64,000 nucleotides of DNA from an uncultured Bacteroidota bacterium (GTDB lineage Bacteria > Bacteroidota > Bacteroidia > 2-12-FULL-35-15). The position numbers and the translations under genes were made by a program. Under the pieces are notes generated by a model that was not told the DNA's origin, made no database searches, and saw only the letters and a list, made by a program, of their open reading frames with translations. Numbering within the stretch: the first letter of the stretch is position 1; each line of letters opens with the position of its first letter. Shown here piece after piece: positions 3,523-64,000 of this stretch. The stretch lies in the NCBI GenBank assembly GCA_903926385.1, contig CAIYIS010000007.1, forward strand, positions 71,614 to 135,613. The letters are read 5' to 3'.

Positions 3523-3589
3523 AGATAGGATTTTAAATTTCGGGATTCCATATTTCAGATTTCAAATTAATCAACAATTATTAGGGCGC

Positions 3590-3838: not shown

Positions 3839-3869
3839 AAGCACGTAATAATACCCCAACCGTCTCGCA

Positions 3870-5675: not shown

Positions 5676-5804
5676 TTAAACTCCGTTTTACCCATAGCCC
5701 AAGTTATTATATGCGTTTAAACGAAGGATTTTTAAGGTTTCGTGTTTTTCAGGTTTTGGGGTAAAATGCGTTTTAAAGCGATTTTTTGAGAAATTATCAC
5801 CTCT

Positions 5805-5875
5805 CCCCTGCCCCTCTCCGCAAAAACACCTCACCCCTTAATCCCCTCTCCGAAGGAGAGGGGGAGATGCGTGAC
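5805..5875. repeat. GC-rich hairpin element (same family as 3870-4050)
   Basis: CCCCTCTCC-gaa-GGAGAGGGGG perfect stem-loop plus CACCTCTCCCCTGCCCCTCTCC; same CCCTCTC/GAGAGGG core as the other copies. Confidence 0.4.
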
Positions 5876-6035
5876 GGTTGGGGTAAGTTTTAAGTATACA
5901 TATATATATATGTATTATATTTGTGGGGGGGAGGAAACGGGTTTGGTTTAACACCTGAAAAGGCGAGAAAATAGTTTAGCAAATTTATATGTTAACAGCA
6001 AGCGTAATGCCCGAACCTAACCGAACAACTATAGC

Positions 6036-26195: not shown

Positions 26196-26544
26196 TTATC
26201 CTAATTAGCAAAAAGAGATTTTACCTTATACGGTAATTTTTATAGAAATCAATAATTTCGGAGGGGAGAAGAGTCGATTGAAAGTTGAAATGTTGGAAGT
26301 TTCAGGTATTAGGTTGTCATTATGAGCGCAGCAATTTCCATATTATCATTATTCAATAAACCTACTATTTATATTGCGTAAAATACGACAATAAAAGTCC
26401 GAATATTTCTGAACGGAGGTAATTGTTGCGGTTGGAAGTTAAAAGCAGGGGAATTAGAAATTTTAAGCACCGATATGAAGAGGGAGTTTGACAATTGGGG
26501 CATTCCGTTTCGGGACTTCTGTAATTATATTACATTTTCTTATC

Positions 26545-26780
26545 TTTAGTTTATAAATTCGTGTCTTGAGTTAATCAATTCGTGTCTCCAGATTATAAAT
26601 TCTTGTTTCCAGATTATAAATTCGTGACTTGAGGTAATCAATTCGTGTATTCAGTTTATGAATTCGTGTCTCCGGATTATAAATTCGTGTCTTGAGGTAA
26701 TCAATTCGTGTCTTCAGTTTATTAATTCGTGTCTCCAGATTACAAATTCGTGTCTCTAGTTTATGAATTCGTGCCAAGGT
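26545..26780. repeat. tandem array of about 11 copies of a 21-bp unit (consensus ATnAATTCGTGTCTCCAGATT)
   Basis: Direct reading: an invariant AATTCGTGTCT core with a variable 3' half. It lies in a 1.3-kb gene-free region upstream of hppA. There are no unique spacers, so it is not CRISPR. Confidence 0.85.
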
Positions 26781-37405: not shown

Positions 37406-37430
37406 TTATTTGTTTTTCCCCCTCTCGAGT
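37406..37430 (+). terminator. GC-rich hairpin immediately after the 37398 stop (terminator-like; same CCCTCTC/GAGAGGG family)
   Basis: CCCCCTCTC-gagtga-GAGAGGGGG perfect 9-bp stem; the T-tract is weak. Confidence 0.3.
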
Positions 37431-37473
37431 GAGAGAGGGGGAAACTATTTTGATAGGGTTAAATAAAACAAAG

Positions 37474-40437
37474 ATGAGGTTGCTTCTACATATATTTTCA
37501 GCTGGTGCTAAGCAGGTTTATTTTCGACTTGTTTTGTTAGTTGCTTTTTTATGTGTTGCTAATCCCTTCGTTTCTTTTGCTCAGCGGCCCGACCCGATAT
37601 TAAAACCCGGACAATACCTTCCTCGTCTTACGGGATTATATTCCAGCAAACAAAGTCTCCCTTCTCCAAATAATACGGATGATACAGAGAATTATTTTCC
37701 TGAAAAATTTCCTTTGGATAAAAATCATTGCAAAGAAGATATTAGCAAACGTACGCCTACATCGAGAACATACAAGTCGGATGATGGGCAAATAGTGGTG
37801 GAAAATTCGCTTGCAAACATAAATTATTATGATAAGAATAAAGAGTTGCAGCCACTCACTCCCAATTTATATCCTGCATTAAACGGATGGATGGGCAAGT
37901 GTCAAGAGTTTCCTACTTATCTTCATCCTGATGGAAGTACCGAACTGACTTTATACGAGCATACATTTTCTTTTAATAAAAATTGCCGAATAAATAATCA
38001 GCCAATTAATATGACTGATTACACGGTAGGAGTAGAGGGTATGTATGCTCATGAGGTTTATCCTTCAGTTGATAAAAAAATCGTGTTTTTTGAAAATATG
38101 ATAGAAACCGATTACATCATTCAACAGCCCGTTGCTAGTAACGGACAGGACATTGTTTTTTCGGAAGAAATTAATTTGCCTGCCGGATATACTATTGTAA
38201 AAAATCCAAAACCTGTGCAGTTTAGAAAAGAAGGAGTGCCGATGGTGAACGATGATGAGTTGGATGAATACATAGTGGTGGATGCAGAAAAACGAGTGCA
38301 ATCGCAATTAAAGACTCCTGTTTATTATGATAAAAAATATAAATCGATAGCAGGTAAATATGAAGTAGTAACGGAGAATAACAAGACCATTCTGAAATAT
38401 GTTGTGCCTGCATCGTGGCTAAATGATGCATCAAGAGTATATCCGGTAACTATCGACCCTGTGGTATTTGGCCCGTATTCATGGTATCCTCCTCAGTTTG
38501 GTCCTTACAGTTATCCTACAGGTTGGTTACCGAGTTGTCAGGCTCCTAACTGGTCATCCGATAGTATGCTTATTACTATTCCTGCCAATGTTACTGTAAC
38601 ACATTTGATAACTTGGGATAGTTATTATGCGGATATGGTAAATGGAATTTTGATGGTATGGGGAGCTATGTACTTGCATTCGCCTTGTGGCACAACACCT
38701 GTGTTTGTTGCCGGTGGAGTAGGGGCCGACTCCTCCGGATATGCTTACCTGGATAGTTTCAATTTGGCAACCTGGGTTGGTTGTTGTTTTCCTCCATCGT
38801 GTAGCCCTCAATCATTTTATTTATCTCACCATTTTCAGCGCATTGCTATGTTGGGGCCTGGTTGCAATTTAACTATGGTTGGTTATAGTCCGGCAAGTCC
38901 ATGGAAATTTCATTGTTTCTTTATTGGGCGAACAGTAGAAACCTCTCAAAGTAATGGATGGTTTCTGTTTCCTTCTCCGGTGTGTTCGGACACCTGTAAT
39001 GTCAAGTTGAGAGTTATTAGTAATTATGGCGTACCTCCTTATACGCTCACACATCCGTGGGCTGCCGGAAGCTTGACGTACGGCACTGCAACAGGTGGAT
39101 GCAATAGTCACGGAACAGACACAATATCGCTTACCATTCCCGGATGTCCTACGTATTGTGGTGTTAATTCTACATTGAGTGTTCCTCCGCCCCATATCAC
39201 AGATGTTTGTGGAGATACAGTGGCGGGGCTTTCGCCTAAAAATATTACCATTCATCCTGCACCCGATGCACAAGCCAGCAATGTTACTGTTTGTGCAGGT
39301 ATGCCCATAAGTATTGCTGTTACATCGTGTGTGCCCACAGCCACATTTATATGGACAGGTAGCGATGCCAGCAGCGGTACAGGAAATATTTCGAATACTA
39401 ATACTGCTGTGCCAGGAGTTATTACATACACCGCTACACCAACAGCCAATGGATGTGCAGGCGCTCCTGCTATAGTTACCGCCACCATAGCCAATCAGCC
39501 AACGGCATCTCTTGTGGCTTCGGGCAATTTTATATGCGGAGGAATTCCGATTACCATTACCGGTTCGGGTGGGCCGCCTTATCAGTGGAGTGGAGGAAGC
39601 ACCGCCACTACAGCTTCAATCACTGTTACTCCAATGCTTACTACTGCTTATTATTTAACGGTAGGTTCGGGCAGTTGTACCGATTCGGCTAGTGTTATTA
39701 TTCAGGTCGATTCAATGCCTTTGCCTACTGTGGCCGGAAATCAGGTTATTTGCGAAGGGCAGAGTACTACTTTGGTTGCTACTGGTGCATCCACTTATTT
39801 ATGGAGTGGAGGTGTAAACAGTACTAATGCAACTGTTACTGTTTCGCCAGTATTAACCACTACTTATTATGTTACTGGTACTACTTCTTGCGGAAGTTCT
39901 ATAGATACTGCTGTGGTTACGGTTAATCCTATACCCAATGTTTACACCGGAAATACAGATACTACCATCACTGCAGGAATTACTTTGCAGTTGAGCAGTT
40001 TTGGTGGTAACTCTTATATATGGAGCGGAGATGGTTTGTCGTGTTCAGCTTGTCCCGACCCCATTGCACAGCCTCTAACCACTACTACGTACACATTAAC
40101 AGGAACCGATTTGAACGGATGTTCTTCTACCGATTACTTTACGGTTACCGTATTGCCGGGAGAAGATATTTTATATATACCGAATACTATTACCCCTGAC
40201 GAGAATGATAAAAACGATGTTTTTTATGCCTATGGCATCAACATAAAACATTTGCAAATGCAGGTGTTCGACCGTTGGGGAGAACTTATTTTTGAAAGTA
40301 ATGATAAATCAATTGGCTGGAATGGTATGCAAAACGGGGATTATGTGGGTATGGGGGTGTACGTTTATGTTATTCGTTGCGACTTTAACGATGGCACCAG
40401 TGTGAAACGAATTGGAAATATTAATGTGATTTATTAG
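37474..40437 (+). CDS. large secreted adhesin-like protein with T9SS type B C-terminal domain
   Basis: Signal peptide MRLLLHIFSAGAKQVYFRLVLLVAFLCVANPFVSFAQ. Repeated ~75-aa Cys-containing Ig-like units (..CxG..xxLxAxGAxxYxWSxG..). C-terminal ITPDENDKNDVF...FDRWGELIFES...GWNG...GVYVYVI type B CTD. Confidence 0.75.
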   Translation: MRLLLHIFSAGAKQVYFRLVLLVAFLCVANPFVSFAQRPDPILKPGQYLPRLTGLYSSKQSLPSPNNTDDTENYFPEKFPLDKNHCKEDISKRTPTSRTYKSDDGQIVVENSLANINYYDKNKELQPLTPNLYPALNGWMGKCQEFPTYLHPDGSTELTLYEHTFSFNKNCRINNQPINMTDYTVGVEGMYAHEVYPSVDKKIVFFENMIETDYIIQQPVASNGQDIVFSEEINLPAGYTIVKNPKPVQFRKEGVPMVNDDELDEYIVVDAEKRVQSQLKTPVYYDKKYKSIAGKYEVVTENNKTILKYVVPASWLNDASRVYPVTIDPVVFGPYSWYPPQFGPYSYPTGWLPSCQAPNWSSDSMLITIPANVTVTHLITWDSYYADMVNGILMVWGAMYLHSPCGTTPVFVAGGVGADSSGYAYLDSFNLATWVGCCFPPSCSPQSFYLSHHFQRIAMLGPGCNLTMVGYSPASPWKFHCFFIGRTVETSQSNGWFLFPSPVCSDTCNVKLRVISNYGVPPYTLTHPWAAGSLTYGTATGGCNSHGTDTISLTIPGCPTYCGVNSTLSVPPPHITDVCGDTVAGLSPKNITIHPAPDAQASNVTVCAGMPISIAVTSCVPTATFIWTGSDASSGTGNISNTNTAVPGVITYTATPTANGCAGAPAIVTATIANQPTASLVASGNFICGGIPITITGSGGPPYQWSGGSTATTASITVTPMLTTAYYLTVGSGSCTDSASVIIQVDSMPLPTVAGNQVICEGQSTTLVATGASTYLWSGGVNSTNATVTVSPVLTTTYYVTGTTSCGSSIDTAVVTVNPIPNVYTGNTDTTITAGITLQLSSFGGNSYIWSGDGLSCSACPDPIAQPLTTTTYTLTGTDLNGCSSTDYFTVTVLPGEDILYIPNTITPDENDKNDVFYAYGINIKHLQMQVFDRWGELIFESNDKSIGWNGMQNGDYVGMGVYVYVIRCDFNDGTSVKRIGNINVIY

Positions 40438-40502
40438 TGCATTGGTTCGATTGATCAATGGTTAATTAGTTTCCTACCTATTCCTAATCTTATAATCTTC
40501 TG

Positions 40503-40662
40503 AACGCCTCACCCCTGAACTAGCACACAATCCGGCTCAAACAGCCACAGGCTGTTTGCCCTTCCCTCTCCAAAGGAGAGGGGGCGAAGCTTAGTGAAAC
40601 ATGAATTTTGTTTATAATTAGGCTCCCCTCTCTTTTGGAGAAGGGCCGTGGGTGAGGCGTTT
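40503..40662. repeat. ~160-bp highly structured palindromic element with terminal inverted repeats (MITE/REP-like)
   Basis: Outer inverted repeat GAACGCCTCACCCC ... GGGTGAGGCGTT encloses the hairpins AAACAGCC-aca-GGCTGTTT and CCCTCTCC-aaa-GGAGAGGG, the same motifs as at 3870-4050. Confidence 0.5.
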
Positions 40663-40740
40663 TGTTATTTATAAATAATGTTAAGGATGGGTGCAATTAG
40701 TATAGTTGTTTCTCCTTCCCCAATTTTCTTCCTTTATTAA

Positions 40741-41097
40741 TTAGTATGCTCTGAACAGCGATTCCAAAGGGATGTTTAGTTTTTCGTGCAAATTACGAAT
40801 CATATTAATGGATAGTTTACGCTTGCGGTTTAATATCTCGCTTACTCTGTTTCTTGAACCAATGATATTAGTGAGGTCTTTTGCCTCGTAACCCAATTGT
40901 TCCATTCTAAATTTAATCGCTTCAATTGGGTCAGGAGCATCTATGGGGTAATGCTCATCTTCATATTTTTCAATCAAAATACCAAGAATCTCTAATTCGT
41001 TTCCTTCCTTAGTTCCGGGACGAGAATCGAATATTTCTTCCAAACGGAGCAATGCTTGTTTATAATCTTTTGCCGATTTTATGGGTTTAATGTTCAT
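40741..41097 (-). CDS. higA: type II antitoxin HigA (XRE-family HTH)
   Basis: 118 aa. The HigA-like N-terminal region MNIKPIKSAKDYKQALLRLEEI and HTH region LGYEAKDLTNIIGSRNRVSEILNRKRKLSINMIRNL. It lies directly downstream of a HigB-like toxin. Confidence 0.7.
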   Translation of the reverse strand: MNIKPIKSAKDYKQALLRLEEIFDSRPGTKEGNELEILGILIEKYEDEHYPIDAPDPIEAIKFRMEQLGYEAKDLTNIIGSRNRVSEILNRKRKLSINMIRNLHEKLNIPLESLFRAY

Positions 41098-41108
41098 CTG
41101 TTGAATTA

Positions 41109-41423
41109 TTAAATTGTGTTAGCGTCTATCCTGTTGTAAGCAGCATGTGTTCCCACAAACCGAATCCAAACCATTTTATATTTATAATTTATCTTTACTA
41201 TTAAACGATACGAATTGCCTTTAATATTAAATACAACCCTGTTGTTGGCCAAAAAGCTTGCACTCGGATAATTTATTTTTATATCTTTTGTGGAACGCCA
41301 ATCAGCAGTGTTCGTTTCGTCATACCAAGCCTTTAATTGCTGTTCGCTATCGGCATGTTTTTCCCAAAACTCCTTCAATGTTTTTTTTGCAATAACTCTC
41401 AATGTCTTTTTATATGGGTACAA
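41109..41423 (-). CDS. higB: type II toxin HigB (RelE/ParE superfamily mRNA interferase)
   Basis: 104 aa. ..KTLKEFWEKHADSEQQLKAWYDE....NYRLIVKINYKYKMVWIRFVGTHAAYNRIDANTI matches the HigB family. Toxin-first order with an 11-bp gap to higA. Confidence 0.75.
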   Translation of the reverse strand: MYPYKKTLRVIAKKTLKEFWEKHADSEQQLKAWYDETNTADWRSTKDIKINYPSASFLANNRVVFNIKGNSYRLIVKINYKYKMVWIRFVGTHAAYNRIDANTI

Positions 41424-41910
41424 ATGTACGAATCGTTTTTTAGGAATGTTCCCAAATGGGGAACTTTATTTTTAAGAGGTGTTTTTTGTTTATTACTTTT
41501 TTCATCTTATCCGTGATGTAAAATATTTTTATCATAAATTAACCAACCAAATAAATTATTTTGTATTTTTGAACCATCCTATTCAACTGACAGCAAAAGC
41601 TTAAGTCGATTGAGGCGAAATGGTAATTCTATTATTTTTTAGATTTTGTTGGTTTTTTGTTAGGTTAAAATAAAAGAGTGCGCTGATTTGTATGATTGTT
41701 TAGGATAAAAAATGATTGCTTATAATACAATTGGAATTAGGAAGAAAATGAGATAGAATAGTATGATCGAATTTATGATAAAGTGGTTTGCACATGCGTA
41801 CTTCTCTTTATGCACAACATCATTTTTTATCATCACTTCAATCATAAATCATTTTCAATTCTTACCTATCATAATTATCAGCGTACCATTTTTCGAATCA
41901 ACAGAAAATT

Positions 41911-42627
41911 TTGTATAACTTCAATTTTTATAGTATGAAAACAAAACGCTATTTAACCAGCACTAAAACACGCAGAAGTATTGTCCGTAAAAGTTACAAG
42001 TCCGGAAAAAAACAAAAAAAGATACTGATTTTATTGAGCACAACCACCGTAATTCATACGGTTATCGGTTTGCTGAAAATGCCCAGAACAGTGGCTGCAA
42101 AAGGTGTTCGGGCTTCCGAAATTTCAAGGGCTGTGGCAGCAAGCACACGAGTGACTACTTCGGCAGCAGTAATAACTGCACTCAATCAAAAAATTAATAC
42201 CTATACTAAAGCCACTCCAAAAACTCGGCCTGCAGCAGAACTAGCCATGATGAAAGCTCTCAATTCTATTCTTCGTAATTATCAAACTACAGCAGATAAC
42301 GACCCTGAAAATGCTTTGGACATATTTGCTTCCGGAACATTTGGAACTAAAGGGTATGGAGGACGCACTCAACAAGAATTTAAAGTGAAAAATTCTACGG
42401 TAACTGGCTCAGTTACTCTAGTGGCTAAAGGAGGTGGAAACTATTGTTGTCATGTTTGGAAGTATTCTCTGGATGGAGAGAACTGGAATTGGATAATGCC
42501 TACCATTAAAGCTAAAGCTACTATCGAAGACCTTCCAGAAGGGCAAACTGTTTATTTTACTCACGAGTTAGTTACCGGAAAAGGGCCACAAGGTGTAAGT
42601 CAAATATTCAAATTAGTGATAGGCTGA
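41911..42627 (+). CDS. hypothetical protein
   Basis: 238 aa; basic N-terminus, one hydrophobic segment, no recognisable motifs. Start may be at MKTKRYL (41935). Confidence 0.4.
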   Translation: MYNFNFYSMKTKRYLTSTKTRRSIVRKSYKSGKKQKKILILLSTTTVIHTVIGLLKMPRTVAAKGVRASEISRAVAASTRVTTSAAVITALNQKINTYTKATPKTRPAAELAMMKALNSILRNYQTTADNDPENALDIFASGTFGTKGYGGRTQQEFKVKNSTVTGSVTLVAKGGGNYCCHVWKYSLDGENWNWIMPTIKAKATIEDLPEGQTVYFTHELVTGKGPQGVSQIFKLVIG

Positions 42628-42689
42628 TTAGTAATTTGCTTTGCCAAGTATACAAAATACATAAGTAGTTGAGTAAAATGTACAACAAC

Positions 42690-42960
42690 TCACATTGTTG
42701 TTACAATAATTTCTCACATTGTTACAATATTATCTCACATTGTGAGGAGAATCTCTTACATTATTACAATAATCTCTCACATTCTTACAATAATGTCTTA
42801 CATTATTACGATAATGTCTCACATTGTTATAATAATCTCTAACATTATTACGAAAATTTCTTACATTGTTACAATAATTTATCACATTATTACGATAATG
42901 TCTTACATTATTACAACATTGCCTCTCATTATTACATTAATGTCTCACATCAATATAACA
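42690..42960. repeat. tandem array of about 13 copies of a 21-bp unit, each containing the palindrome ATTGT-n-ACAAT
   Basis: Units such as AATTTCTCACATTGTTACAAT, AATGTCTTACATTATTACGAT; the half-sites ATTGT/ACAAT are exact reverse complements. There are no unique spacers. Confidence 0.85.
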
Positions 42961-43045
42961 ACTCAGTATTCTGCTTAAACATAACAAGTTTAAAGGGGAA
43001 TTTCTTCGTCTGTTCTTACTGCCAATCAAATATTAAAAAGCTAAA

Positions 43046-43098: not shown

Positions 43099-43470
43099 TT
43101 ATTTTTCATAAAGCAAAACATCAATTTCATTTATTTTTTTAAAATCTTTATCTGCCGTAAGTAATGGTAATGAAAGATATTGTGCTGTGGCGGCAATAAT
43201 AGCATCAGGTAATTTCAATTTATTTTTAACGCGATGTGTGATTGCATTTTTTTTGATGGAAGGATTAATATCAATAATAATACAATCGTTTAATAATTCA
43301 GAAAGTTTATCTTTTTCATGCAAAGAATATTTTCTATACGACAATAATTCTAATTCGGTGATAAATGAAATGTAAACTGAGTTGGAATCGAGCAGAGAAA
43401 CTAATGCTTCGTCTTTATCGAGAAGGTAAATGAGAATATTTGTGTCAACAAAAATATTATTGCCATTCAT
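43099..43470 (-). CDS. vapC: PIN-domain toxin (VapC-like)
   Basis: 123 aa. Conserved acidic residues (FVDTN.., ..ELE.., ..TADKDF) in PIN order. Confidence 0.75.
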   Translation of the reverse strand: MNGNNIFVDTNILIYLLDKDEALVSLLDSNSVYISFITELELLSYRKYSLHEKDKLSELLNDCIIIDINPSIKKNAITHRVKNKLKLPDAIIAATAQYLSLPLLTADKDFKKINEIDVLLYEK

Positions 43471-43621: not shown

Positions 43622-43740
43622 ACTACTATTTTTTTTGTAAAAGTACGAAAAAGAAAAATACTACTATTAAAATAGTGAACCTATTTGGAGAATGCATCCA
43701 ACAACTAACAACCAACAACCAACAACTTACCCTTGATATG

Positions 43741-43824
43741 AGCGGTATGGCAAAGGGAGTTTATTTTTTAACAGTAAATAGCAAGAAGGGAATAGTGAAT
43801 AGAAAAATAGTGAAGGAGTAAGGA
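43741..43824 (+). pseudogene. C-terminal fragment of a T9SS type A sorting domain (..LTLDMSGMAKGVYFLTVNSKKGIVNRKIVKE*); right direct repeat of the cassette
   Basis: In-frame Por_Secre_tail-like tail of about 35 aa. Its stop is followed by a strong terminator, but there is no upstream ORF body (the frame opens only after a stop at ~43690). Confidence 0.5.
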
Positions 43825-43996: not shown

Positions 43997-45349
43997 TTGA
44001 AAATGAATATTATTCAGGAGAACATTGACGAGTTAAATGCAGTATTGAAAGTGGAAGTATCGGCCGAAGATTATCTGCCGCAAGTAAAATCGGTATTGAA
44101 AAATTATCAGAAAAAAGCCAGTATACCAGGGTTTCGTCCCGGTAAAGTACCTGCAGGATTGATAGAAAAACAATACGGAAAAGGAATAAAAGTGGATGAG
44201 ATTCAAAAACTGTTGAGCGATTCATTGATTCAATATATGACAGAAAAAAAACTGAATGTATTGGGAAGTCCGTTGCCTAAAGAAGGTACCGAAAACACTA
44301 TTGACTGGGATGGAAGTAATTTCGAATTTTATTATGAATTAGGTCTTTCGCCTGAGTTTTCGGTAGAAATTACACCGAAAGATAAATTGGTTTTTCAAAC
44401 CTTGAAAATAGATGATGCTTTGTTAAACAAAAACATTGAAAGCATCACCAAACGTTACGGAAAAGTACAACCTCAGGAATCGGTAAGTGCTGATGATTTA
44501 TTGTATGGAGAATTTGTTCAGCTAAACGATGCAGGTGAAGTGGTAGAAGGCGGAATTAACAAAGCAGGTTCTTTGTTTCTTGACAAATTAGTGGATGACG
44601 ATACCAAAAAAATGTTGTTGGGTAAAAAAGCGGGCGACCAAGTAGTGATTCATTCTACTAAACTTTCGGCAAACAAAACCGACCTTGCAGCAATGCTGGG
44701 AATTGAAAAAGGGATTGCCGAAATATTGAACTGCAATATTCAGTTCACCATTAAAGAAATTACACATATCGTTCCTGCCGAAATCAATCAGGAGTTTTTA
44801 GATAAAGTGTTCGGACCGGGTGTGGTTAATTCGGAAGAAGAATTCAGATTAAAAATAAAAGACGAACTTACGGAGAGTTATCTGAATGATAGCAATACCA
44901 AGTTTTATTACGATGCAATAGATTATTTAATGTCTAAAATAAATTTTAATTTGCCGGAGAAGTTTTTGAAACGTTACCTTACTTTTTCGAACAGAGATAA
45001 ATTTACACCTGATGAAGTTGAAAAGGATTTCAGTCAATATTCTATTGGAATGAAATGGCAGTTGATACAAAACAAACTGACTGATGAGTATAACATTAAT
45101 GTTACAGAAGAGGACATGGTTGATTACATCAAAAATAACATCATCCGTCAGTATGGAGCTCATTTGCTGGAGTCGATGGGAGATGAAGAGTTAACCAAAA
45201 CAGCAAAACGTGTGTTGGGTAACGAAGAGGAGGCTAAAAAAGTTCATGACGACCTTCTTGTTTATAAAATGAAAGAGCTTTTTAAATCAAAATTTACTTT
45301 GGAAAATCAGGAAGTAGATTATGATGTGTTTTTTGGTGTGAAAAAATAG
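43997..45349 (+). CDS. tig: trigger factor
   Basis: N-terminal ribosome-binding domain with the GFRPGKVP signature; the length and the tig-clpP-clpX gene order are conserved. Confidence 0.9.
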   Translation: MKMNIIQENIDELNAVLKVEVSAEDYLPQVKSVLKNYQKKASIPGFRPGKVPAGLIEKQYGKGIKVDEIQKLLSDSLIQYMTEKKLNVLGSPLPKEGTENTIDWDGSNFEFYYELGLSPEFSVEITPKDKLVFQTLKIDDALLNKNIESITKRYGKVQPQESVSADDLLYGEFVQLNDAGEVVEGGINKAGSLFLDKLVDDDTKKMLLGKKAGDQVVIHSTKLSANKTDLAAMLGIEKGIAEILNCNIQFTIKEITHIVPAEINQEFLDKVFGPGVVNSEEEFRLKIKDELTESYLNDSNTKFYYDAIDYLMSKINFNLPEKFLKRYLTFSNRDKFTPDEVEKDFSQYSIGMKWQLIQNKLTDEYNINVTEEDMVDYIKNNIIRQYGAHLLESMGDEELTKTAKRVLGNEEEAKKVHDDLLVYKMKELFKSKFTLENQEVDYDVFFGVKK

Positions 45350-54869: not shown

Positions 54870-55232
54870 GGGGTCGTACGGTTTTGACAGCGAGTGCGAT
54901 TTTTATGTAAGCATGTCGTGTGTTGTGAATATGACACGTAAATACTAATTCTCAAATTTCTATATGGCGAGTCTAACTACGCTATGGCTGCTTAATACCA
55001 AGTATTAAGTGCCTTTGTTTCCGGAGAAGCTCTGATCTTCTGCGTCTCCAGCGAAGCATCATAAACGAAGAAATAGTTGCGAAGAACTTCGATTCGCAAT
55101 GAGATAAAGAAGATAAGTAAACCTGTTGGCCTGCAAACTTGCCTAAGTTTAACGAAAATCAAAAGTAAGCTACACATGTAGAAAGCATATTAATTCCTTG
55201 TTTGGACGAGGGTTCGAATCCCTCCGACTCCA
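54870..55232 (+). ncRNA. ssrA: transfer-messenger RNA (tmRNA); tag peptide G-E-S-N-Y-A-M-A-A-stop
   Basis: The 5' end GGGGTCGTACGGTTTTGAC pairs with the 3' end CGACTCC-A. Internal tag ORF GGCGAGTCTAACTACGCTATGGCTGCTTAA; 3' tRNA-like T-arm GGACGAGGGTTCGAATCCCTCC. About 363 nt. Confidence 0.85.
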
Positions 55233-55295
55233 CTCCATGGGAAGGTTACATAAGTAGCCTTCCCTTTTTTGTTTCACCTGTAAGCGCTCTAATTC

Positions 55296-55719: not shown

Positions 55720-55990
55720 GTGATACTTATAGTAGGTAATATAATTACTTTATAAGGGTAATTATATTTATTATATTAGGTAAATATTAATCTTTATATT
55801 GGTAATTATATTACTCAAAATTGGTAAAAGAATATATTTAAGTAGGTAATACGATTACTTAAAGTAAGTAATTATATTACTTATTAATAGTAATATGTTT
55901 ACCTTTATAAGGTAAGTATATTGCCTTTTATAATGAAATGAATTACTTTTTTTAGGTAAATGTATTCCTTATTATAGGGAATAATTAAAT
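55720..55990. repeat. AT-rich array of about 11 copies of a ~22-bp unit containing the palindrome GTAAT-n3-ATTAC
   Basis: Units GGTAATTATATTAC.., GGTAATACGATTAC.., AGTAATTATATTAC.. about 22 bp apart; half-sites GTAAT/ATTAC are exact reverse complements. It sits in the promoter region of the 55296-55700 gene. Confidence 0.7.
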
Positions 55991-56137: not shown

Positions 56138-59100
56138 TTACTTAAGCACCGTAACACTTCCAATATATTTATGGTCTTCTTTGTGATTATCTTTTAAATT
56201 TACCACGTAAACATACACACCATCCTGCACCAAGTTCCCCATATAGGTTCCATCCCAGTGTTTAGATAAATCATCTCCATAAAATAACAGATTTCCCCAC
56301 CGGTCAAAAATTCTCATTTCGTAGGAAGTAATGCTTTCGCCCAAACCGTAAAACTCATCATTCACACCATCTCCGTTAGGAGTAAAAGCATCCGGAATAT
56401 AAAAAGTAAATACACCTTCTATAGAAATACAATGGGTTACAGTATCCGAACAATTCGCATTTGACGCGGTTAGTAACACGCAGTAAGAACCTATTTGAGA
56501 ATATTCATGTGTTGGATTTTTGGCACTACTGAAATTATTTGGCATTCCTGTATCTCCGAAATTCCAGCTCCACATAGTTGAATTGGTTGATAGATTAGTA
56601 AAATTAACAACCGGGAAAGTGATTAATGATGTCAATGGTGCTGTGAATTCAGCCACAGGCACCACATTAACTGTAACAGTTCCCGTTCCCGAACTAGAGC
56701 ACCCATTGGAGGTTCCGGTTACTGTATAAGTAGTTGTTGTGTCAGGAATTACTACTATATTGTTAGAAGTAGAGCCCGTATTCCACGAATAAGCAAGTGC
56801 TCCGTTGGCCGTAAGCACTGCTGAAGTACCTGCACACACCGTTACCGAATTTACACTAATTACAGGAAATTGATAAACCGTTATGGTTGCAGATGCAGTA
56901 GTGCTGCATCCCAATGCTGTTCCGGTTACAGTGTAACTTGTGGTAGCTGTTGGAAACACTGTAATGGCCGCAGTATTTGCCGCAGTATTCCATAAAAACG
57001 AAGTGGCATTACCCAACGCAGTTAAGGTTGCCGGTTGTCCTGCACAAGAAGAGATCGAATTTACAATAAGATTAGGAAGAGGATTAACCGTAACAGTTGA
57101 AACAGCTGTTGCCACACATCCAAGTGTTGAGCCGGTTACCGTATACGTAGTGGTTACAACAGGAGAGGCTGTTGCTGATGCTCCTGCAGCCGTTACTCCT
57201 GCACTCCATGTATAACTCACCGCTCCTGCTGCTGTCATGGTGGCCACAGCTCCGTTACATATTGTTGGTGAAGTAACGGTAACAATCGGAAGCGGATTAA
57301 CCAGCACCGATATGGTGTCTCTCGCACTTTCACAGCTAGCTATGGTTTGCGATACATAATAATTTGTTGTTCCTGCCACAAGTGTCGAAGGTGTTGGCGA
57401 AAGCGCATTTCCTGAGCCTCCTGCCGCAGCGGTGTACCAAAGCAAACCCGCACCGGTGGAAGTCAGGGCGGGTGCAACATCGTTCTGACAATAGGTAAGC
57501 GGTGAAACAACAACAGGTGGAGCAGGGGCACTAATGGTGACATTATAGCTGACTGCAGTTCCTGCACCACAAGTACCGGTTTCGGTAACAGAAACAGTTC
57601 CTACTCCGGCCGCACCAAAACTCACGGTTATCTGGTTTGTTCCTTGTCCGGCCGTTATGCTTGCTCCTGCCGGTACAGACCAGTTGAATGTAGAACCAGC
57701 AGTATTGGTTACAGAATATATAATACCTGTGGCATTCGGGCAAACAGGAGTAGTACCTGTGATGGCCGATGTTACGGGCAAAAGAGTAACCCCTACAGCT
57801 AAACTGACTGCTGTTCCCGGTCCGCAATTGTTTGTTTCGATCACAGAAACATTGCCACTGGTTACTCCAAAGGTTACTGTTATTTGATTGGTTCCTTGTC
57901 CGGCTGTAATGGTTGCACCTGCCGGAACGGTCCAGGCATAAGTGTTTCCAACTGTATTGGTAACTGAATAAACAACTCCTGTTGTATTTAAACATACAGT
58001 TGCAGGTCCTGTAATGACGGAGGTTGCAGGCAAAGAAGTTACCACAACAGCAAAGTTGACAGCCGCTCCCGGTCCGCAATTATTAGTTTCTATTACAGAA
58101 ACATTGCCTGAATTTGAACCGAAGGTTACAGTTATTTGATTGGTGCCTTGTCCTGCTGTGATACTTGCACCAACAGGAACTGCCCATGCATAGGTATTCC
58201 CAACAGTGTTGGTTACAGAAAACGTTACACCAGCTGTATTCGGACAAACAGGTGTAGTGCCTGTAATAGCCGATGTAACCGGTAAAGAGAATAAAGTAAC
58301 AGCAAAATTTACAGCTGCTCCCGGTCCGCAATTGTTGGTTTCTATTACGGAAACATTGCCCGCAGTCGCTCCAAAGTTTACTGTAATCTGGTTGGTGCCT
58401 TGGCCGGCAGTAATTGTTGCTCCTGCCGGAACGGTCCAGGCATAGGTATTTCCAACCGTATTGGTAACTGAATAAACAACTCCGGTGGCATTCGGGCAAA
58501 CAGGGGTAGTACCTGTAATGGCTGATGTAACAGGTAACGGAGAAATAGCAACAGCAAAGTTAACAGCCGCACCCGGTCCGCAATTATTGGTTTCTATTAC
58601 GGAAACATTGCCGGCATTGGTTCCAATGGTTACGGTTATCTGATTAGTCCCCTGACCGGCTGTAATGACAGAACCGGCTGGCACTGTCCATGCATAGGTT
58701 GAACCTGCTGTATTGGTAACCGAATAAATTACACCGGCAGTGTTTGGACAAACTGGTGTGGTGCCTGTGATAACTGATGTTACAGGTAAAGTGGTAACAC
58801 CAACAGCAAAGTTAACTGCCGCTCCCGGTCCGCAATTGTTTGTCTCAATTACTGAAACTGTTCCAGAAGTTACACCAAAGCTAACTGTAATTTGATTGGT
58901 ACCTTGACCGGCTGTTATGACTGCTCCTGCCGGAACAGTCCAGGCATAGGTATTTCCAATGGTGTTGGTAACAGAATAAGTAATACCTGTTGCATTCAAA
59001 CACACAGGTGTAATTCCTGTTATAGCTGATGTTGTTGGCAATGGAAAAATGGCAACAGCAAAGTTAACAGCTGCTCCCGGTCCGCAATTATTCGTTTCTA

Positions 59101-62100
59101 CAACTGAAACATTTCCCGGAGTAGTTCCAAAATCAACAGTGATCTGATTGGTGCCTTGTCCGGCTGTAATTGTTGCACCTGCCGGAACGGTCCAGGCATA
59201 AGTATTTCCAACCGTATTGGTAACTGAATAAACAACTCCTGTTGTATTAGGACAAACTGGTGTAGTGCCTGTGATGGCTGAAGTAACAGGTAATGAAAAA
59301 GTGGTTACAACAAAATTTACTGCTGTTCCTGGTCCGCAATTATTCGATTCGGCAACGGAAACAGTACCAGCAGTCGCTCCAAAGTTTACAGTAATCTGAT
59401 TAGTGCCTTGTCCTGCAGTAATCGTTGCTCCGGCAGGAACGGTCCAGGCATAAGTGTTTCCAACTGTATTGGTAACTGAATAAACAGCACCTGTTGCATT
59501 CGGGCAAACGGGAGTAGTGCCTGTAATGGTTGATGTGACAGGCAATGAATAAGTAGTTACAGCAAAATTTATGGCTGTTCCGGGTCCACAATTATTCGAT
59601 TCGACAACAGAAACAGTGCTTGCTGTTGCTCCAAAAGTTACTGTTATTTGGTTGGTGCCTTGTCCGGCTGTAATCGTAGCTCCTGCCGGAACGGTCCAGG
59701 CATAAGTATTTCCAACAGTGTTGGTGACTGAAAAAACAACTCCTACAGCATTCGGACAAACTGGTGTGGTGCCTGTGATGACTGATGTTACAGGTAACTG
59801 TGTAATCGTAACCGGGAAGTTAACGGCTGTTCCGGGTCCGCAATTGTTTGTCTCAATTACTGAAACTGTTCCAGAAGTTACACCAAAGCTAACTGTAATT
59901 TGATTGGTACCTTGACCGGCTGTTATGATTGCTCCTGCCGGAACAGTCCAGGCATAGGTATTTCCAATGGTGTTGGTAACAGAATAAGTAATGCCAGAGG
60001 CATTCAAACAAACCGGAGAAGAGCCTGTGATGGCTGATGTGGTTGGCAAAGGTGAAATGGCTACAGCAAAATTAACTGCCGGACCTGAACCGCACATATT
60101 GGTTTCAATTACTGAGACATTTCCCGGAGTGGCTCCGAAAGTAACGGTTATCTGATTGGTGCCTTGACCGGCTGTGATGGCAGCTCCTGTCGGAACAGTC
60201 CAGGCATAAGTATCTCCGGCAATATTGGTAACAGAATAAATTACCCCTGTGGTATTCGGACAAACTGGTGTGGTACCGGTAATGGCTGAAGTAACAGGTG
60301 GAGGAAGTATAGCAACAGCATAGTTAACTGTAGCTCCCACTCCGCATGTTCCCGTTTCGGTAACGGTAACATTTCCTCCCGTAGGGCCGAAGTTTACTGA
60401 AATTTGATTACTGCCTTGACCCGAAACGAGTGTAGCTCCTGCCGGAACTGTCCAGGCATAGGTACTGCCGGTGGTATTAACTACTGAAAAAAGAACTCCT
60501 GCAGCATTTGCACAAATAGGTGAAGTACCCGTGATAGCTGATGTAACTGGAAGTAAAGTAATAGCTACCGGAAGACTAACAGCAGCTCCTATTCCACACA
60601 CATTCGATTCGATAACAGAAACGGTGCCGCCTGCAGCTCCCCAATTGATGGCAATCTGATTTGTACCTTGCCCTGAAGCAATGGTAGCTCCGCCAGTTAC
60701 TGTCCAGCTGTATGTATTTCCAGCCACATTGGTAACCGAATAAGCTATACCGGGAGCATTGAGACAAACGGGCGAAGGGCCAATGATGGGTGTAGTTACA
60801 GGAATTGGTGTAACCACCAAGGCATAATTTACAGCAGGTCCCGGCCCGCAAACATTGGTTTCTACCACAGAAATGGTTCCTCCGGTTGTGCCGAAATTAA
60901 CGGTAATTTGATTAGTGCCTTGTCCGGCTGTAATGGTGGCTCCTGCCGGAACCGTCCAGGCATAGGTATCTCCAGGAGTATTGGTAACCGAATAACTAAC
61001 ACCTGCTGTGTTCGGACAAACAGGTGTGGTACCTGTGATGGCTGATGTAACAGGCAAAGGAGTAACAGCAACGGCCATGTTAACAGCTGCTCCGGGTCCG
61101 CAAATATTGGTTTGAACCACCGAAACGGTTCCGTTTGCACTTCCCCAGTTAACGGTTATCTGATTGCTACCTTGTCCGGCTGTGATGGTGGAACCTGCCG
61201 GAACGGTCCAGGCATAGGTGTTTCCAACAACATTAGTAACCGAATAAACCAATCCGGTTTGATTAGGACAAACGGGAGTGGTGCCTGCAATGGCTGATGT
61301 AACAGGTAAAGGGAAAATAGCAACTGGAAAATTAACTAAAACTCCCGGGCCGCAAACATTACTTTCTGTAACCGAAACATTGCCTCCTGTGCCGGCAAAG
61401 GTGACTGTAATCTGATTGGTACCTTGTCCGGAGGTAATAGTAGCACCTACCGGAACGGTCCAGGCATAGGTATCTCCGGGAACATTGGTAGCCGAATAAA
61501 TAACACCTGCAGCCGTAGGGCAAACGGGTGTGGTGCCTGTGATGGCTGAGGTAACGGGCAATTGAGTTACCACAACTGCAAGGTTAACGGCAGCTCCGGG
61601 TCCGCAAATATTGGTTTGAATAACAGAAATAGTTCCGTTGGCTCCGCCCCAGTTAACAGTTATCTGATTAGTGCCTTGTCCGGCTGTAATGGTGGCACCG
61701 GCCGGAACGGTCCAGGCATAGGTGTTTCCAACAACATTAGTAACCGAGTAAATCAATCCAGTTTGATTAGGACAAACGGGAGTGGTGCCTGCAATGGCTG
61801 AAGTAACAGGCAGAGGGAAGATAGCAACCGGAAAATTAACTGAAACTCCGGGTCCGCAAACATTGCTTTCTGTTACCGAAACATTGCCTCCTGTACCGGC
61901 AAAGGTTACTGTAATTTGATTGGTGCCTTGTCCGGATGTAATGGTAGCTCCAGCCGGAACGGTCCAGGCATAGGTATCTCCGGGAATATTGGTAACCGAA
62001 TAAACGACACCAGCAGCTGTAGGGCAAACGGGGGTGGTACCGGTGATGGCTGATGTAACTGGCAATTGAGTTACCACAACTGCAAGGTTAACAGCTGCTC

Positions 62101-64000
62101 CTGCTCCGCAAATATTGGTTTGAATCACCGAAACGGTTCCGTTTGCATTTCCCCAGTTAACTGTTATCTGATTAGTTCCTTGTCCGGCTGTGATGGAGGT
62201 TCCTGCCGGAACGGTCCAGGCATAGGTATCTCCAACAACATTGGTAACCGAAAAGATTAATCCGGTTTGATTAGGACAAACGGGAGTGGTGCCTGTGATG
62301 GCTGAGGTAACTGGTAAAGGAAAAATAGCCACCGGGAAGTTAACGGCCGGAGCAACTCCGCACGGGTTACTTTGTATCACCGACACATTGCCTCCTGTTC
62401 CGGCAAAGTTTACTGTAATTTGATTGGTGCCTTGTCCTGATGTAATGGTAGCTCCCGGAGGAACTGTCCAGGCATAAGTGCTTAATGCCACATTGGCCAC
62501 AGAATAAACAACTCCTGAAGCAGTAGGGCATACGGGTGTTGTTCCGGTAATAGGAGTGGCAACGGGCAATGGAGTAACGGAAACAGCCATGGTGATGGCC
62601 GGGTCGCTGCGGCAAATGTTAGACTGAATAACAGAAACGGTTCCACCTGTAGTGCCAAAATTAACAGTAATTTGATTTGTACCTTGCCCGGAAGTAATGG
62701 TAGCACCTGCCGGAACGGTCCATGTATAGGTTATTCCAGCAACAGCCGGAAGAGAATACACCATGCCGGTGGCGTTAGGACAAATAGGTGTTGGGCCGGT
62801 GATGGGTGCCGGAACAATAGTTACACCAATTACAGTAACCACTATTGGTTTTCGATAAGTGCCGGGGCAAAACCCTGCATAATAAGTGGCGGTAGCAAAC
62901 AAAGGAGGGGTGGTATAAGTAGGGCCTGTGGCTATGGGCGCTCCTCCAACCAAAGTTGTGTACCAATAAATGGTGGCACCAATAGGGCCATTTATAGAAG
63001 CCGTTAAAGTAGCAGTGTTTCCGTTACAGATGGTAATATCGGCCACGGTTATGGTATCGTGAGTAATGAGTTGATTTATAAGTCCGCTTGCACCTTTTGT
63101 TGCTCCGTTTGGAGGAAATTCAGTAAGTCCAGCTGAGTTTGTTGTTCCGTTGTTTCCACCATTTCCAATTTGAGTTATTGCTCCTCCTGCTGTGGCAAGG
63201 TAACCAGCACCGCCACCTCCACCAGGACCTTCAGCTTCAATACTGCCTGCAATAAGAAATTGTGTGCCCCCGGGGCCTCCGTTGACGGAAGCGGTAATGC
63301 CTGAAAGTGTTCCAACACTATTTATAATAATAGTTCCACCACCACCACCACCGGCAGCTCCATCAAATCCTGAATTTAAACAGGCTCCTCCAGGAGCTAC
63401 AATACTTCCCCCTCCGCTTAAAGTACCATAATTCATTATGTATACGATTCCGCCTCCTGGCATTCCAACACCAGCAGCTCCATTATCCCTGTCACCGGCA
63501 CCACCACCACCACCCATAAAAATTTTACCTGTAGAATAATCGAGCGGCCGTCCTCCTAATCCTCCGTTAGCTTGACGGTTATCTCCTCCCCATAAAGCAT
63601 TATTCGTTCCAGTAATCGTTGCATTCTGGTCTGTTAAAGAAGTGGAATAACCACCTCTTCCTCCACCTCCTGAAGTATGAGCTGAAAATCCAGGAGATTC
63701 CAAATCCCAGGCTGAAACCCAACCTGCACCTCCTGCAACACTTGGATTTCCTTGGCCATCCCAAGTAAGCAATGATGAAGCATTAGCACCACCACCACCA
63801 CCAGCATTATGACAATCACCACCACCACCTCCATTAGCGAAAGCTCCTCTACCATACTGCCCACCCAATGTATTGTAATCGGCACCATATCCTCCAATGC
63901 CTTCTCCTTTATTGGAGCCCACTGTGAAACTTGTTCCTGCATATTGTGTTCCTCCGAAGCCAGTGGGGTTAAGGGGAGCCAAACCGCCTCCCCTGAAACC
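56138..64000 (-). CDS. giant T9SS type B substrate / adhesin (over 2614 aa; the N-terminus continues beyond the window end)
   Basis: The N-terminus is Gly-rich. About 25 tandem 76-aa Ig/PKD-like repeats follow (..PVTSAITGTTPVCPNxxGVxYSVTNxxGxTYAWTVPAGATITAGQGTNQITVxFG..). After further Ig-like repeats come a PKD domain (WSWNFGDTG...HEY...GSY) and a type B CTD (FTPNGDGVNDEF...FDRWGNLLF..WDGT..GVYVYVV). Confidence 0.85.
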   Translation of the reverse strand, partial: GFRGGGLAPLNPTGFGGTQYAGTSFTVGSNKGEGIGGYGADYNTLGGQYGRGAFANGGGGGDCHNAGGGGGANASSLLTWDGQGNPSVAGGAGWVSAWDLESPGFSAHTSGGGGRGGYSTSLTDQNATITGTNNALWGGDNRQANGGLGGRPLDYSTGKIFMGGGGGAGDRDNGAAGVGMPGGGIVYIMNYGTLSGGGSIVAPGGACLNSGFDGAAGGGGGGTIIINSVGTLSGITASVNGGPGGTQFLIAGSIEAEGPGGGGGAGYLATAGGAITQIGNGGNNGTTNSAGLTEFPPNGATKGASGLINQLITHDTITVADITICNGNTATLTASINGPIGATIYWYTTLVGGAPIATGPTYTTPPLFATATYYAGFCPGTYRKPIVVTVIGVTIVPAPITGPTPICPNATGMVYSLPAVAGITYTWTVPAGATITSGQGTNQITVNFGTTGGTVSVIQSNICRSDPAITMAVSVTPLPVATPITGTTPVCPTASGVVYSVANVALSTYAWTVPPGATITSGQGTNQITVNFAGTGGNVSVIQSNPCGVAPAVNFPVAIFPLPVTSAITGTTPVCPNQTGLIFSVTNVVGDTYAWTVPAGTSITAGQGTNQITVNWGNANGTVSVIQTNICGAGAAVNLAVVVTQLPVTSAITGTTPVCPTAAGVVYSVTNIPGDTYAWTVPAGATITSGQGTNQITVTFAGTGGNVSVTESNVCGPGVSVNFPVAIFPLPVTSAIAGTTPVCPNQTGLIYSVTNVVGNTYAWTVPAGATITAGQGTNQITVNWGGANGTISVIQTNICGPGAAVNLAVVVTQLPVTSAITGTTPVCPTAAGVIYSATNVPGDTYAWTVPVGATITSGQGTNQITVTFAGTGGNVSVTESNVCGPGVLVNFPVAIFPLPVTSAIAGTTPVCPNQTGLVYSVTNVVGNTYAWTVPAGSTITAGQGSNQITVNWGSANGTVSVVQTNICGPGAAVNMAVAVTPLPVTSAITGTTPVCPNTAGVSYSVTNTPGDTYAWTVPAGATITAGQGTNQITVNFGTTGGTISVVETNVCGPGPAVNYALVVTPIPVTTPIIGPSPVCLNAPGIAYSVTNVAGNTYSWTVTGGATIASGQGTNQIAINWGAAGGTVSVIESNVCGIGAAVSLPVAITLLPVTSAITGTSPICANAAGVLFSVVNTTGSTYAWTVPAGATLVSGQGSNQISVNFGPTGGNVTVTETGTCGVGATVNYAVAILPPPVTSAITGTTPVCPNTTGVIYSVTNIAGDTYAWTVPTGAAITAGQGTNQITVTFGATPGNVSVIETNMCGSGPAVNFAVAISPLPTTSAITGSSPVCLNASGITYSVTNTIGNTYAWTVPAGAIITAGQGTNQITVSFGVTSGTVSVIETNNCGPGTAVNFPVTITQLPVTSVITGTTPVCPNAVGVVFSVTNTVGNTYAWTVPAGATITAGQGTNQITVTFGATASTVSVVESNNCGPGTAINFAVTTYSLPVTSTITGTTPVCPNATGAVYSVTNTVGNTYAWTVPAGATITAGQGTNQITVNFGATAGTVSVAESNNCGPGTAVNFVVTTFSLPVTSAITGTTPVCPNTTGVVYSVTNTVGNTYAWTVPAGATITAGQGTNQITVDFGTTPGNVSVVETNNCGPGAAVNFAVAIFPLPTTSAITGITPVCLNATGITYSVTNTIGNTYAWTVPAGAVITAGQGTNQITVSFGVTSGTVSVIETNNCGPGAAVNFAVGVTTLPVTSVITGTTPVCPNTAGVIYSVTNTAGSTYAWTVPAGSVITAGQGTNQITVTIGTNAGNVSVIETNNCGPGAAVNFAVAISPLPVTSAITGTTPVCPNATGVVYSVTNTVGNTYAWTVPAGATITAGQGTNQITVNFGATAGNVSVIETNNCGPGAAVNFAVTLFSLPVTSAITGTTPVCPNTAGVTFSVTNTVGNTYAWAVPVGASITAGQGTNQITVTFGSNSGNVSVIETNNCGPGAAVNFAVVVTSLPATSVITGPATVCLNTTGVVYSVTNTVGNTYAWTVPAGATITAGQGTNQITVTFGVTSGNVSVIETNNCGPGTAVSLAVGVTLLPVTSAITGTTPVCPNATGIIYSVTNTAGSTFNWSVPAGASITAGQGTNQITVSFGAAGVGTVSVTETGTCGAGTAVSYNVTISAPAPPVVVSPLTYCQNDVAPALTSTGAGLLWYTAAAGGSGNALSPTPSTLVAGTTNYYVSQTIASCESARDTISVLVNPLPIVTVTSPTICNGAVATMTAAGAVSYTWSAGVTAAGASATASPVVTTTYTVTGSTLGCVATAVSTVTVNPLPNLIVNSISSCAGQPATLTALGNATSFLWNTAANTAAITVFPTATTSYTVTGTALGCSTTASATITVYQFPVISVNSVTVCAGTSAVLTANGALAYSWNTGSTSNNIVVIPDTTTTYTVTGTSNGCSSSGTGTVTVNVVPVAEFTAPLTSLITFPVVNFTNLSTNSTMWSWNFGDTGMPNNFSSAKNPTHEYSQIGSYCVLLTASNANCSDTVTHCISIEGVFTFYIPDAFTPNGDGVNDEFYGLGESITSYEMRIFDRWGNLLFYGDDLSKHWDGTYMGNLVQDGVYVYVVNLKDNHKEDHKYIGSVTVLK
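57200..62810. repeat. about 25 near-identical 228-bp tandem repeats inside the giant adhesin gene
   Basis: DNA-level periodicity of 228 bp (76 codons) with high identity. It generates dozens of spurious ORFs in all other frames. Confidence 0.8.

Follow-up and report, generated by a model that had tools for sequence, protein, structure and literature searches.

The tandem array in the window, the 64,000-bp stretch of DNA from an uncultured Bacteroidota bacterium analyzed here, is best explained as a cis-acting row of boxes that recur every two helical turns and probably serve as binding sites for the adjacent gene product. This reading, which draws on sequence comparison, is given a probability of about 40%. 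The array would represent the non-coding half of a two-part chromosomal module, in which the gene for a protein of ∼230 aa is followed by a row of short boxes at exactly 21-bp spacing. Since 21 bp corresponds to two turns of B-DNA, all boxes would face one side of the helix. As double-stranded DNA, the array would then offer a cis-acting platform for the side-by-side binding of a sequence-specific factor. The product of the adjacent gene is the simplest candidate for this factor, and the complex may act through titration, anchoring, or marking of the locus.

Structure of the array and of the adjacent gene product

The array (Table 1) is located between the 3' ends of two convergent genes, the gene for the 230-aa protein on the plus strand and a PIN gene on the minus strand (43099-43470), and begins 62 bp past the stop codon of the former. 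TRF reports positions 42701 to 42950 with a period of 21, 11.9 copies, 76% matches, and a score of 269. Together with the in-register reading, this agrees with the ∼13 tandem 21-bp units described at this place by an earlier, sequence-only reading. The first unit owes its additional length to a 3-bp insertion. The consensus unit is CTyACATTrTTACrATAATnT, with positions 3, 9, 10, 12 to 14, 16, and 20 being variable. Its conserved skeleton, CT.ACATT..T...A.AAT.T, forms the junction dyad AATGT-CTY-ACATT. Perfect copies of this dyad occur in 3 of the 13 units of the window and in 8 of 13 in the orthologous locus L006. A different element, a perfect 5-1-5 palindrome with the sequence ATTGTnACAAT, had previously been assigned to each unit. 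This palindrome is perfect in only two array units (42718 and 42865), that is, in 2 of 12 units in the window compared to 0 of 12 in L006. A third copy is interrupted by a 3-bp insertion, and in the other units the arms pair at 2 to 4 of 5 positions. It is centered on unit positions 9 to 14, the most variable ones, and is the least conserved part of the unit; the junction dyad is better conserved. The degenerate unit pattern (≤3 mismatches) gives 11 matches in the 64-kb window, compared to a chance expectation of 0.35, and all of them fall within the array, with no occurrence elsewhere in the window. No copies of the box were found in the upstream region or promoter of the 230-aa gene, and no flanking or terminal inverted repeats were found around the array.

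Table 1. Positions of the gene, the array, and associated segments in the window
Feature	Position	Strand	Description
Gene for the array-linked protein	41935-42627	+	230 aa; ORF, also called as a 230-aa gene in identical contigs
Spacer (leader), gene stop codon to array	42628-42688	.	Holds a decayed partial unit at ∼42672-42688
Tandem array	42689-42964	.	13 units of 21 bp; first unit 24 bp, last degenerate
Trailer 3' of the array	42965-43022	.	92-95% identical to L006
Co-divergent block, window versus L006	42260-42964	+	FN3-encoding 3' half of gene, spacer, and array

The 230-aa protein consists of a basic N-terminal arm with a net charge of +13 in 29 residues, a four-helix bundle (residues ∼53 to 133), and an FN3-like β-sandwich (residues ∼137 to 228). 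In the AF2 model (pLDDT of 87), the sandwich is seven-stranded and the basic arm is of low confidence. A fold search of the full model with Foldseek matches FN3 domains only, and the helical domain alone (pLDDT of 91) shows no PDB match at an E value of <1. As modeled, the helical bundle and the FN3-like domain would represent a new fold combination, with a helical domain that has no known relative. Searches against the Pfam, NCBIfam, PHROGs, and PADLOC families give no assignment save fn3 in 3 of 50 members, and a sequence search of the PDB gives no relative. No DNA-binding fold is recognizable in the protein by these fold and family searches.

A word-indexed search retrieves only four close homologues of the protein. 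A profile search expands the family to 737 clusters at an E value of ≤1e-3 and 213 clusters at ≤1e-10, with lengths of ∼200 to 330 aa; the protein of the window scores 306 bits against the family HMM. The linked protein has no tblastn match in 72,556 plasmids or 50,697 phage records, and a protein scan and a DNA pattern scan of viral contigs found nothing. The basic N-terminal arm carries a charge of +8 to +13 in the 230-aa forms and is missing from short family members. The long form of 329 aa (L022/23) shows no signal peptide, and one long subfamily contains a clear N-terminal hydrophobic helix. Residues 30 to 47 of the linked protein are calculated to be hydrophobic enough for a membrane anchor. 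FN3 domains are typical of extracytoplasmic proteins. T9SS cargo genes (CHU_C or Por_Secre_tail) adjoin the gene-array module upstream or downstream in six of nine lineages, at the loci L006, L007, L014, L016 to L019, and L021 and at 37429-40437 of the window, and lie within 3 to 5 kb of the module in L022. The hydrophobic segments and the T9SS cargo neighbors indicate that the linked protein could work outside the cytoplasm.

The window has a G+C content of 38.5% and encodes CHU_C and Por_Secre_tail proteins as well as tig-clpP-clpX, a content in keeping with Bacteroidota. Several features in the vicinity of the module were recorded in addition. A segment at 40438-41526 containing HigB (41109-41423), HigA (40741-41097), and a GC-rich element is an insertion relative to L006; HigB and HigA match the PADLOC models PD-Lambda-2_A and PD-Lambda-2_B. 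A 48-aa ORF at 43675-43821 comprises the Por_Secre_tail C-terminal sorting domain of a T9SS cargo protein alone and is apparently what is left of a decapitated gene that the PIN-antitoxin cassette displaced. GC-rich repeats forming CCCTCTCC...GGAGAGGG hairpins are dispersed in this AT-rich genome (window 40490-40692, 5786-5880, 3867-3893, and 4003-4028; L007 9384-9586). One copy lies upstream of the module in both the window and L007, and the element was considered as a part of the module and rejected as a general genome repeat. A minus-strand ORF of 2,614 aa (56138-63982) contains 19 copies of a 252-bp repeat (57627-62479) and probably encodes a giant surface adhesin. In L022, a 340-aa protein encoded 3 kb upstream of the family gene (2938-3960) contains eight 14-aa repeats (GIPKNRVGIKNVPE; 42-bp period) and resembles a winged-helix domain in its C-terminal region.

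Linkage, period, and constraint

In nine of nine lineages of the linked gene, a period-21 array is found 25 to 280 bp after the stop codon. These nine are every lineage with retrievable DNA, out of ∼737 clusters, and their proteins share 23 to 66% identity. The arrays are all downstream of the linked gene, on the same side, and often show a higher-order structure of 42, 63, 84, or 105 bp (Table 2). Only six other arrays with a period of 21, 42, or 63 occur in 153 kb of non-redundant sequence, and the probability of a chance placement within 300 bp is estimated at roughly 0.01 per locus; the placement in nine of nine lineages is therefore not due to chance. Within the sequences retrieved, gene and array are thus linked, and of the context named in the sequence-only reading, a hypothetical gene and a PIN toxin-antitoxin cassette, the gene holds its place. 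The cassette does not, as no toxin-antitoxin genes are found next to homologous modules at other loci. Several retrieved contigs stop inside the array, and the contigs of two further homologues stop 200 to 250 bp past the gene. Contig ends at or near arrays are the assembly signature expected of a repeat.

Table 2. Arrays linked to the family gene outside the lineage of the window, which comprises the window, L006, and L010
Lineage	Protein identity to window	Unit or box	Copies and structure
L007-L009	56%; different locus	Unit TCACCCGTTTGTTACAACCGC	7.8 copies or at least 13
L011	36%	AGTACTC-type units	21/42/105-bp structure
L012	31%	TATGAAATGACACGCCAGACG	
L013	38%	GAACGCGGGACGTTGTCCCGT	
L014/15	35%	42-bp higher-order unit ACAGCCGGTAAAGCGGGAGTCACAAAAGCTAAAGCAACTGTG	∼9 units; TRF 3.6 x 42 bp
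L016-L019	32%	ACCAAGAGAATGGAAGGATAC	3, 10, or at least 5.8 copies; one identical protein
L021	33%	CCCCAAGTAGCGAACCATTAT	At least 8.4 copies
L022/23	27%; 329-aa long form	GTGWCACAA plus ∼12 variable bp	9 units, exact 21-bp spacing

The consensus sequences of the units are unrelated between distant lineages, and the period is exactly 21 bp in all of them. Likeness between arrays is recognizable at 91%, 66%, and 56% protein identity and is gone below ∼45%. The window and L007 (56%) have CTCAC and TTGTTACAA in common, with a mutual shift of 3 bp and a unit total of still 21. L017 and L021 (66%) have the leader AAGACCAAAT and CCAAG in common. Because the likeness of the arrays decays with protein divergence while the unit remains at 21 bp, gene and array have been co-inherited for a long time, with the period being maintained. 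Conservation across the arrays is block-wise, consisting of a box and a variable stretch, as in L022, where GTGWCACAA and the variable base pairs after it recur nine times. The dyads AGTACT, GTGWCAC, and CGGGAC-GTT-GTCCCG, all of them small, are found in several other lineages, with none in L017 and L021. The box is repeated at exactly two helical turns, in line with the helical-turn register proposed earlier. The conserved phased box and the tie to the hypothetical gene in nine of nine lineages also bear out, in spirit, the earlier view of the array as something other than a random minisatellite.

The window contains two further period-21 arrays, A and B, neither of which adjoins a family gene. 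A six-frame HMM search for family members near both arrays and a BLASTP search with the neighboring 211-aa proteins were negative. Array A (5134-5658) is intergenic. It contains ∼19 units with a higher-order repeat of 42 bp (95% identical), after which come 6 units of AGTACTCCATTTAACAGACCG; the box of array A, GAGTACTCCA, is also present in the array located 3' of the family gene in L011. A 190-aa minus-strand ORF over array A (5103-5675) consists of heptads throughout and is called as a gene in an ENA and NCBI record; it is probably a repeat artifact. Array B (26543-26773), with a 63-bp higher-order repeat and the unit TTATAAATTCGTGTCTCCAGA, is likewise intergenic, with a gene for an H+-pyrophosphatase on one side and a gene for a secreted protein on the other. 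Every intergenic array of the window that exceeds two copies, three in total, has a period of 21. The remaining intergenic tandem repeats of the window are AT-rich two-copy repeats of 22/44 bp (GGTAATATAATTACTTTATAAG-like) at 55727-55978, ∼500 bp 3' of the tmRNA gene (54870-55235); tmRNA genes are classical integration hotspots. A second small period-21 array is present in L012 (838-907), ∼200 bp upstream of the family gene, with 3.4 units of TACCATTCACAATGCCAAAAG, a unit unlike that of the downstream array.

Comparison of strains shows how the array changes over shorter distances. Three Logan contigs are 100% identical to the window across the array. The orthologous locus in L006 and L010, with ∼97% overall identity to the window, contains an array of 13 units with a 24-bp first unit and with leader and trailer as in the window. 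The 471-bp intergenic region shows no indel between the window and L006/L010, and both the window and L006 arrays have 13 units despite 28% divergence inside the array. The co-divergent block shows 67 to 88% identity to L006, compared to 95 to 100% in the 5' half of the gene, and identity returns to 92 to 100% directly past the last unit. The proteins differ by 2 amino acids in codons 1 to 110 and by 18 in codons 111 to 230, with differences at residues 154 to 171 of the FN3 domain. The block could be a plain recombination tract. A second mosaic tract is found at the 3' end of tig (44840-45290), with 72 to 87% identity to L006 inside sequence that is 98 to 100% identical; patchy recombination is therefore common between the strains of the window and L006.

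Divergence within the array is unevenly distributed. Between the window and L006, identity is 93% at unit positions 1, 2, 4 to 8, 11, 15, 17 to 19, and 21, compared to 39% at positions 3, 9, 10, 12 to 14, 16, and 20. As neutral yardsticks, the spacer (42628-42688) shows 67% identity, and fourfold-type third codon positions of the same tract show 69%. The difference between box (93%) and spacer (67%) gives a Fisher p value of 5e-6; when only the window array is used to define the box, identity is 83% compared to 67% for the spacer (p = 0.017). Measured against these yardsticks, the box is constrained. T10>G and A12>T are altered in nearly all units at once, which at the sequence level is concerted evolution.

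Copy number varies between strains. L016/18 and L017 contain 3 and 10 units, respectively, with a difference of 147 bp corresponding to 7 units, and L007 and L009 contain 7.8 and at least 13 copies; in both cases the protein is identical. The ENA contig L001 is 99.9% identical to the window over 10.4 kb and continues with unrelated sequence from 43022/43023, 58 bp beyond the array end and at the end of the trailer. The segment is therefore strain-variable. The unrelated sequence (10449-10676) takes the place of trailer, array, and gene. An interpretation of L001 as an empty site was rejected, as the contig ends 228 bp past the breakpoint and this tail matches nothing.

Level of action and the candidate binding factor

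An RNA-level element is an unlikely explanation. Here, the array would be transcribed as a 3' UTR or as a separate small RNA, and its repeated motifs would bind a protein or an RNA controlling the expression or stability of the gene. No terminator was found between gene and array in the window, where the spacer was searched, or in L006, L007, L012, and L014, and five lineages have none in this position. A strong hairpin directly follows the array in L012, as does a hairpin with a T-run in L011, where a terminator on either side of the array gives it the layout of a separate transcription unit. Good intrinsic terminators between gene and array in four lineages (L011, L013, L016/17, and L021), however, argue against an array acting within the mRNA. 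Compared to shuffled sequence, the window array has a better fold (z = -6.1 for the plus strand and -3.8 for the minus strand), but a good fold follows trivially from palindromic units. As read from the consensus units, the arrays do not all share a hairpin motif, and their composition is not consistently biased to one strand; Rfam gives no match save a sub-threshold chance miRNA. For RNA, there is no evident reason to keep a strict period of 21 nt, whereas a strict period of two helical turns would naturally suit proteins arrayed along one face of a DNA duplex.

It is improbable that the array provides phased binding sites or a structural DNA element for a host factor encoded elsewhere, such as a nucleoid or regulatory protein, with the neighboring gene being only the regulated or marked gene. 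The DNA-level evidence is equal for this explanation and for binding by the adjacent gene product. Arrays A and B, existing without a family gene, the recurrence of the array A box in L011, and the linked protein without a known DNA-binding fold are consistent with an external factor. A common factor should keep the box constant, yet each lineage has its own box, and the likeness of the boxes tracks the divergence of the adjacent proteins.

Equally doubtful is a functionless persistent minisatellite (VNTR), originating from slippage or unequal exchange and hitch-hiking with the gene. The shifts in copy number between strains with identical protein, the concerted evolution at variable unit positions, and the assembly breaks at arrays all fit a VNTR. 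A neutral array should be lost or change its period, whereas period 21 is found in nine of nine lineages down to 23 to 27% identity and is restored after internal 3-bp shifts. The box is more conserved than the neutral flanks, and the window and L006 keep their 13 units through the divergence of the array described above.

A small peptide or protein of heptad repeats (7 aa corresponding to 21 nt), for example, HIVTIMS on the plus strand, is very improbable as the product of the array. The HIVTIMS frame contains no stops in the window, L007, and L009 and one in L006, but chance alone would be expected to leave a frame open when a short unit is repeated. Gene callers place ORFs over the arrays of L007-type loci (100 to 131 aa), of L014 (77 aa), and over array A of the window (190 aa), and leave the window array uncalled. 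The ORF called in L007 uses a frame with TAA in every unit of the window, and the frame in which the common box GAGTACTC is read differs between array A and L011. Indels in multiples of 3, as in the 24-bp first unit and the 3-bp shift between the window and L007, would suit a coding sequence, but 3-base periodicity of the variation is absent in all ten arrays tested (p = 0.44 to 0.94). The differences between the window and L006 arrays are distributed over the three codon classes as 24/19/27, and the best frame varies at first and second codon positions, whereas its third positions belong to the most conserved bases. Start codons are not kept between the window and L006, the putative array peptides have nothing in common between lineages, and terminators precede several arrays. 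Because 3-base periodicity and a conserved reading frame are both lacking, the arrays are, judged by their pattern of variation, non-coding. Minus-strand heptads of the a/d type, seen in all three window arrays, were rejected as well: they contain TGA stops in L006, show no 3-periodicity, and lie in frames that are not conserved.

Binding of the array by the product of the adjacent gene remains the preferred explanation. It is favored by the comparison with L006, in which the array diverges as one block with the spacer and the FN3-encoding gene half, as well as by the basic N-terminal arm of the 230-aa forms and a long form without a signal peptide. Against it stand a gene promoter without a box, a protein without a recognizable DNA-binding fold, and arrays A and B without a family gene. 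The basic arm missing in short members, the FN3 domain, the hydrophobic segments, and the T9SS neighbors also speak against it. More tentatively, the sequences suggest a widespread Bacteroidota system in which a protein with a basic arm, a helical bundle, and an FN3-like domain recognizes private, rapidly co-evolving, 21-bp phased boxes. Candidate roles of such a system are anchoring of the locus, titration-based control, and self/non-self marking beside T9SS cargo genes.

If the protein binds its own array, the module would represent a new DNA-recognition module, with a new class of sequence-specific DNA-binding protein and a chromosomal "address" array. The ∼737 clusters would then hold protein-site pairs that have diversified naturally into hundreds of specificities and could serve as orthogonal DNA-binding parts, and would point to new chromosome biology in an abundant, poorly studied phylum. 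Independent of the mechanism, the arrays explain recurrent assembly breaks and spurious ORF calls in Bacteroidota metagenomes, and the period-21 array provides a defining genomic signature for an unannotated protein family. The module is also a clean case of selection holding a repeat period of two helical turns through complete sequence turnover.

Comparison with known repeat systems

CRISPR arrays consist of identical repeats of 24 to 48 bp and unique spacers of similar length, with cas genes nearby. The array is not a CRISPR array, as its 21-bp units contain at most 6 to 12 variable bases and have no cas neighbors. A closer likeness is shown by the BrickBuilt MITE minisatellite of Porphyromonas gingivalis, also an intergenic Bacteroidetes minisatellite with a short unit, no spacers, leader and tail flanks, and variable copy number. 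BrickBuilt has a 23-nt unit of one sequence family, occurs 19 times per genome, has small inverted-repeat ends, and is not tied to a particular gene (PMC4596501). The array differs in having its own unit at each locus, a period of 21, no terminal inverted repeats, and a tie to one protein family. BrickBuilt was the only comparable element found in the literature on 21-bp repeats or minisatellites in Bacteroidetes, in which no gene-array module is described; with none found in the searchable literature, the module is previously undescribed.

A spacing of 21 bp is typical of iterons, and the exact 21-bp period of all lineages falls within the 17 to 22 bp of iteron-type direct repeats, which are phased at approximately two helical turns. 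Together with the dyads in the units and the nearby toxin-antitoxin cassette, this recalls an iteron origin of the plasmid type, a partition centromere, or a cluster of operators bound by a dimeric repressor, which the sequence-only reading had favored. Such an assignment is scarcely credible. The gene next to the array encodes a helical bundle with FN3 and no Rep initiator. No partition NTPase gene (ParA, ParM, or TubZ) lies near the module in any locus, the neighbors being HigBA, PIN-antitoxin, CHU_C, tig, and others. The fold searches of the linked protein also reveal no centromere-binding adaptor of the ParB-HTH, RHH, or TubR fold. The housekeeping genes tig-clpP-clpX-dnaE flank the locus on contigs of at least 86 kb, in accordance with a chromosomal rather than a plasmid-derived location. 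The position between convergent 3' ends is no promoter region, as an operator would require; the family is absent from the plasmid and phage collections, and the toxin-antitoxin neighbors are not conserved at other loci. Of the earlier interpretation as a whole, the functional phased array stands, whereas the operator, the plasmid origin, the partition site, and the relevance of the PIN cassette do not.

Type II centromeres of the ParR-parC systems consist of 11-bp repeats in R1 and 20-bp repeats in pSK41, with parC located upstream as the promoter/operator of parMR. The likeness lies in the tandem direct repeats, which in ParR-parC are bound cooperatively as a nucleoprotein filament and co-evolve in sequence with the adaptor. 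The module differs in its downstream array and has neither an actin-like ATPase nor a ribbon-helix-helix protein.

The iteron control arrays of P1 repA-incA and F repE-incC are located downstream of initiator genes and bind and titrate the product. The module resembles them in its direct repeats (∼19 to 22 bp in these systems), the phasing of approximately two helical turns, the position downstream of the gene, and a sequence specific to each replicon. In contrast to these systems, the module encodes no winged-helix Rep and contains no origin (no second iteron set, DnaA boxes, or AT-rich unwinding element were noticed), and its protein family does not occur in the plasmid and phage collections.

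The type I partition centromere sopC of plasmid F comprises 12 tandem 43-bp repeats directly downstream of sopB, whose product binds them. The module differs from sopB-sopC in being chromosomal, in its period of 21 bp compared to 43 bp, in having no ParA-type ATPase gene and no ParB/HTH fold, and in the terminator between gene and array in several lineages. In its layout, the module is like sopB-sopC: a gene is followed by a tandem array, the unit spans an integral number of helical turns and combines a box, partly dyad, with a spacer, and the number of copies far exceeds that required for a single binding event.
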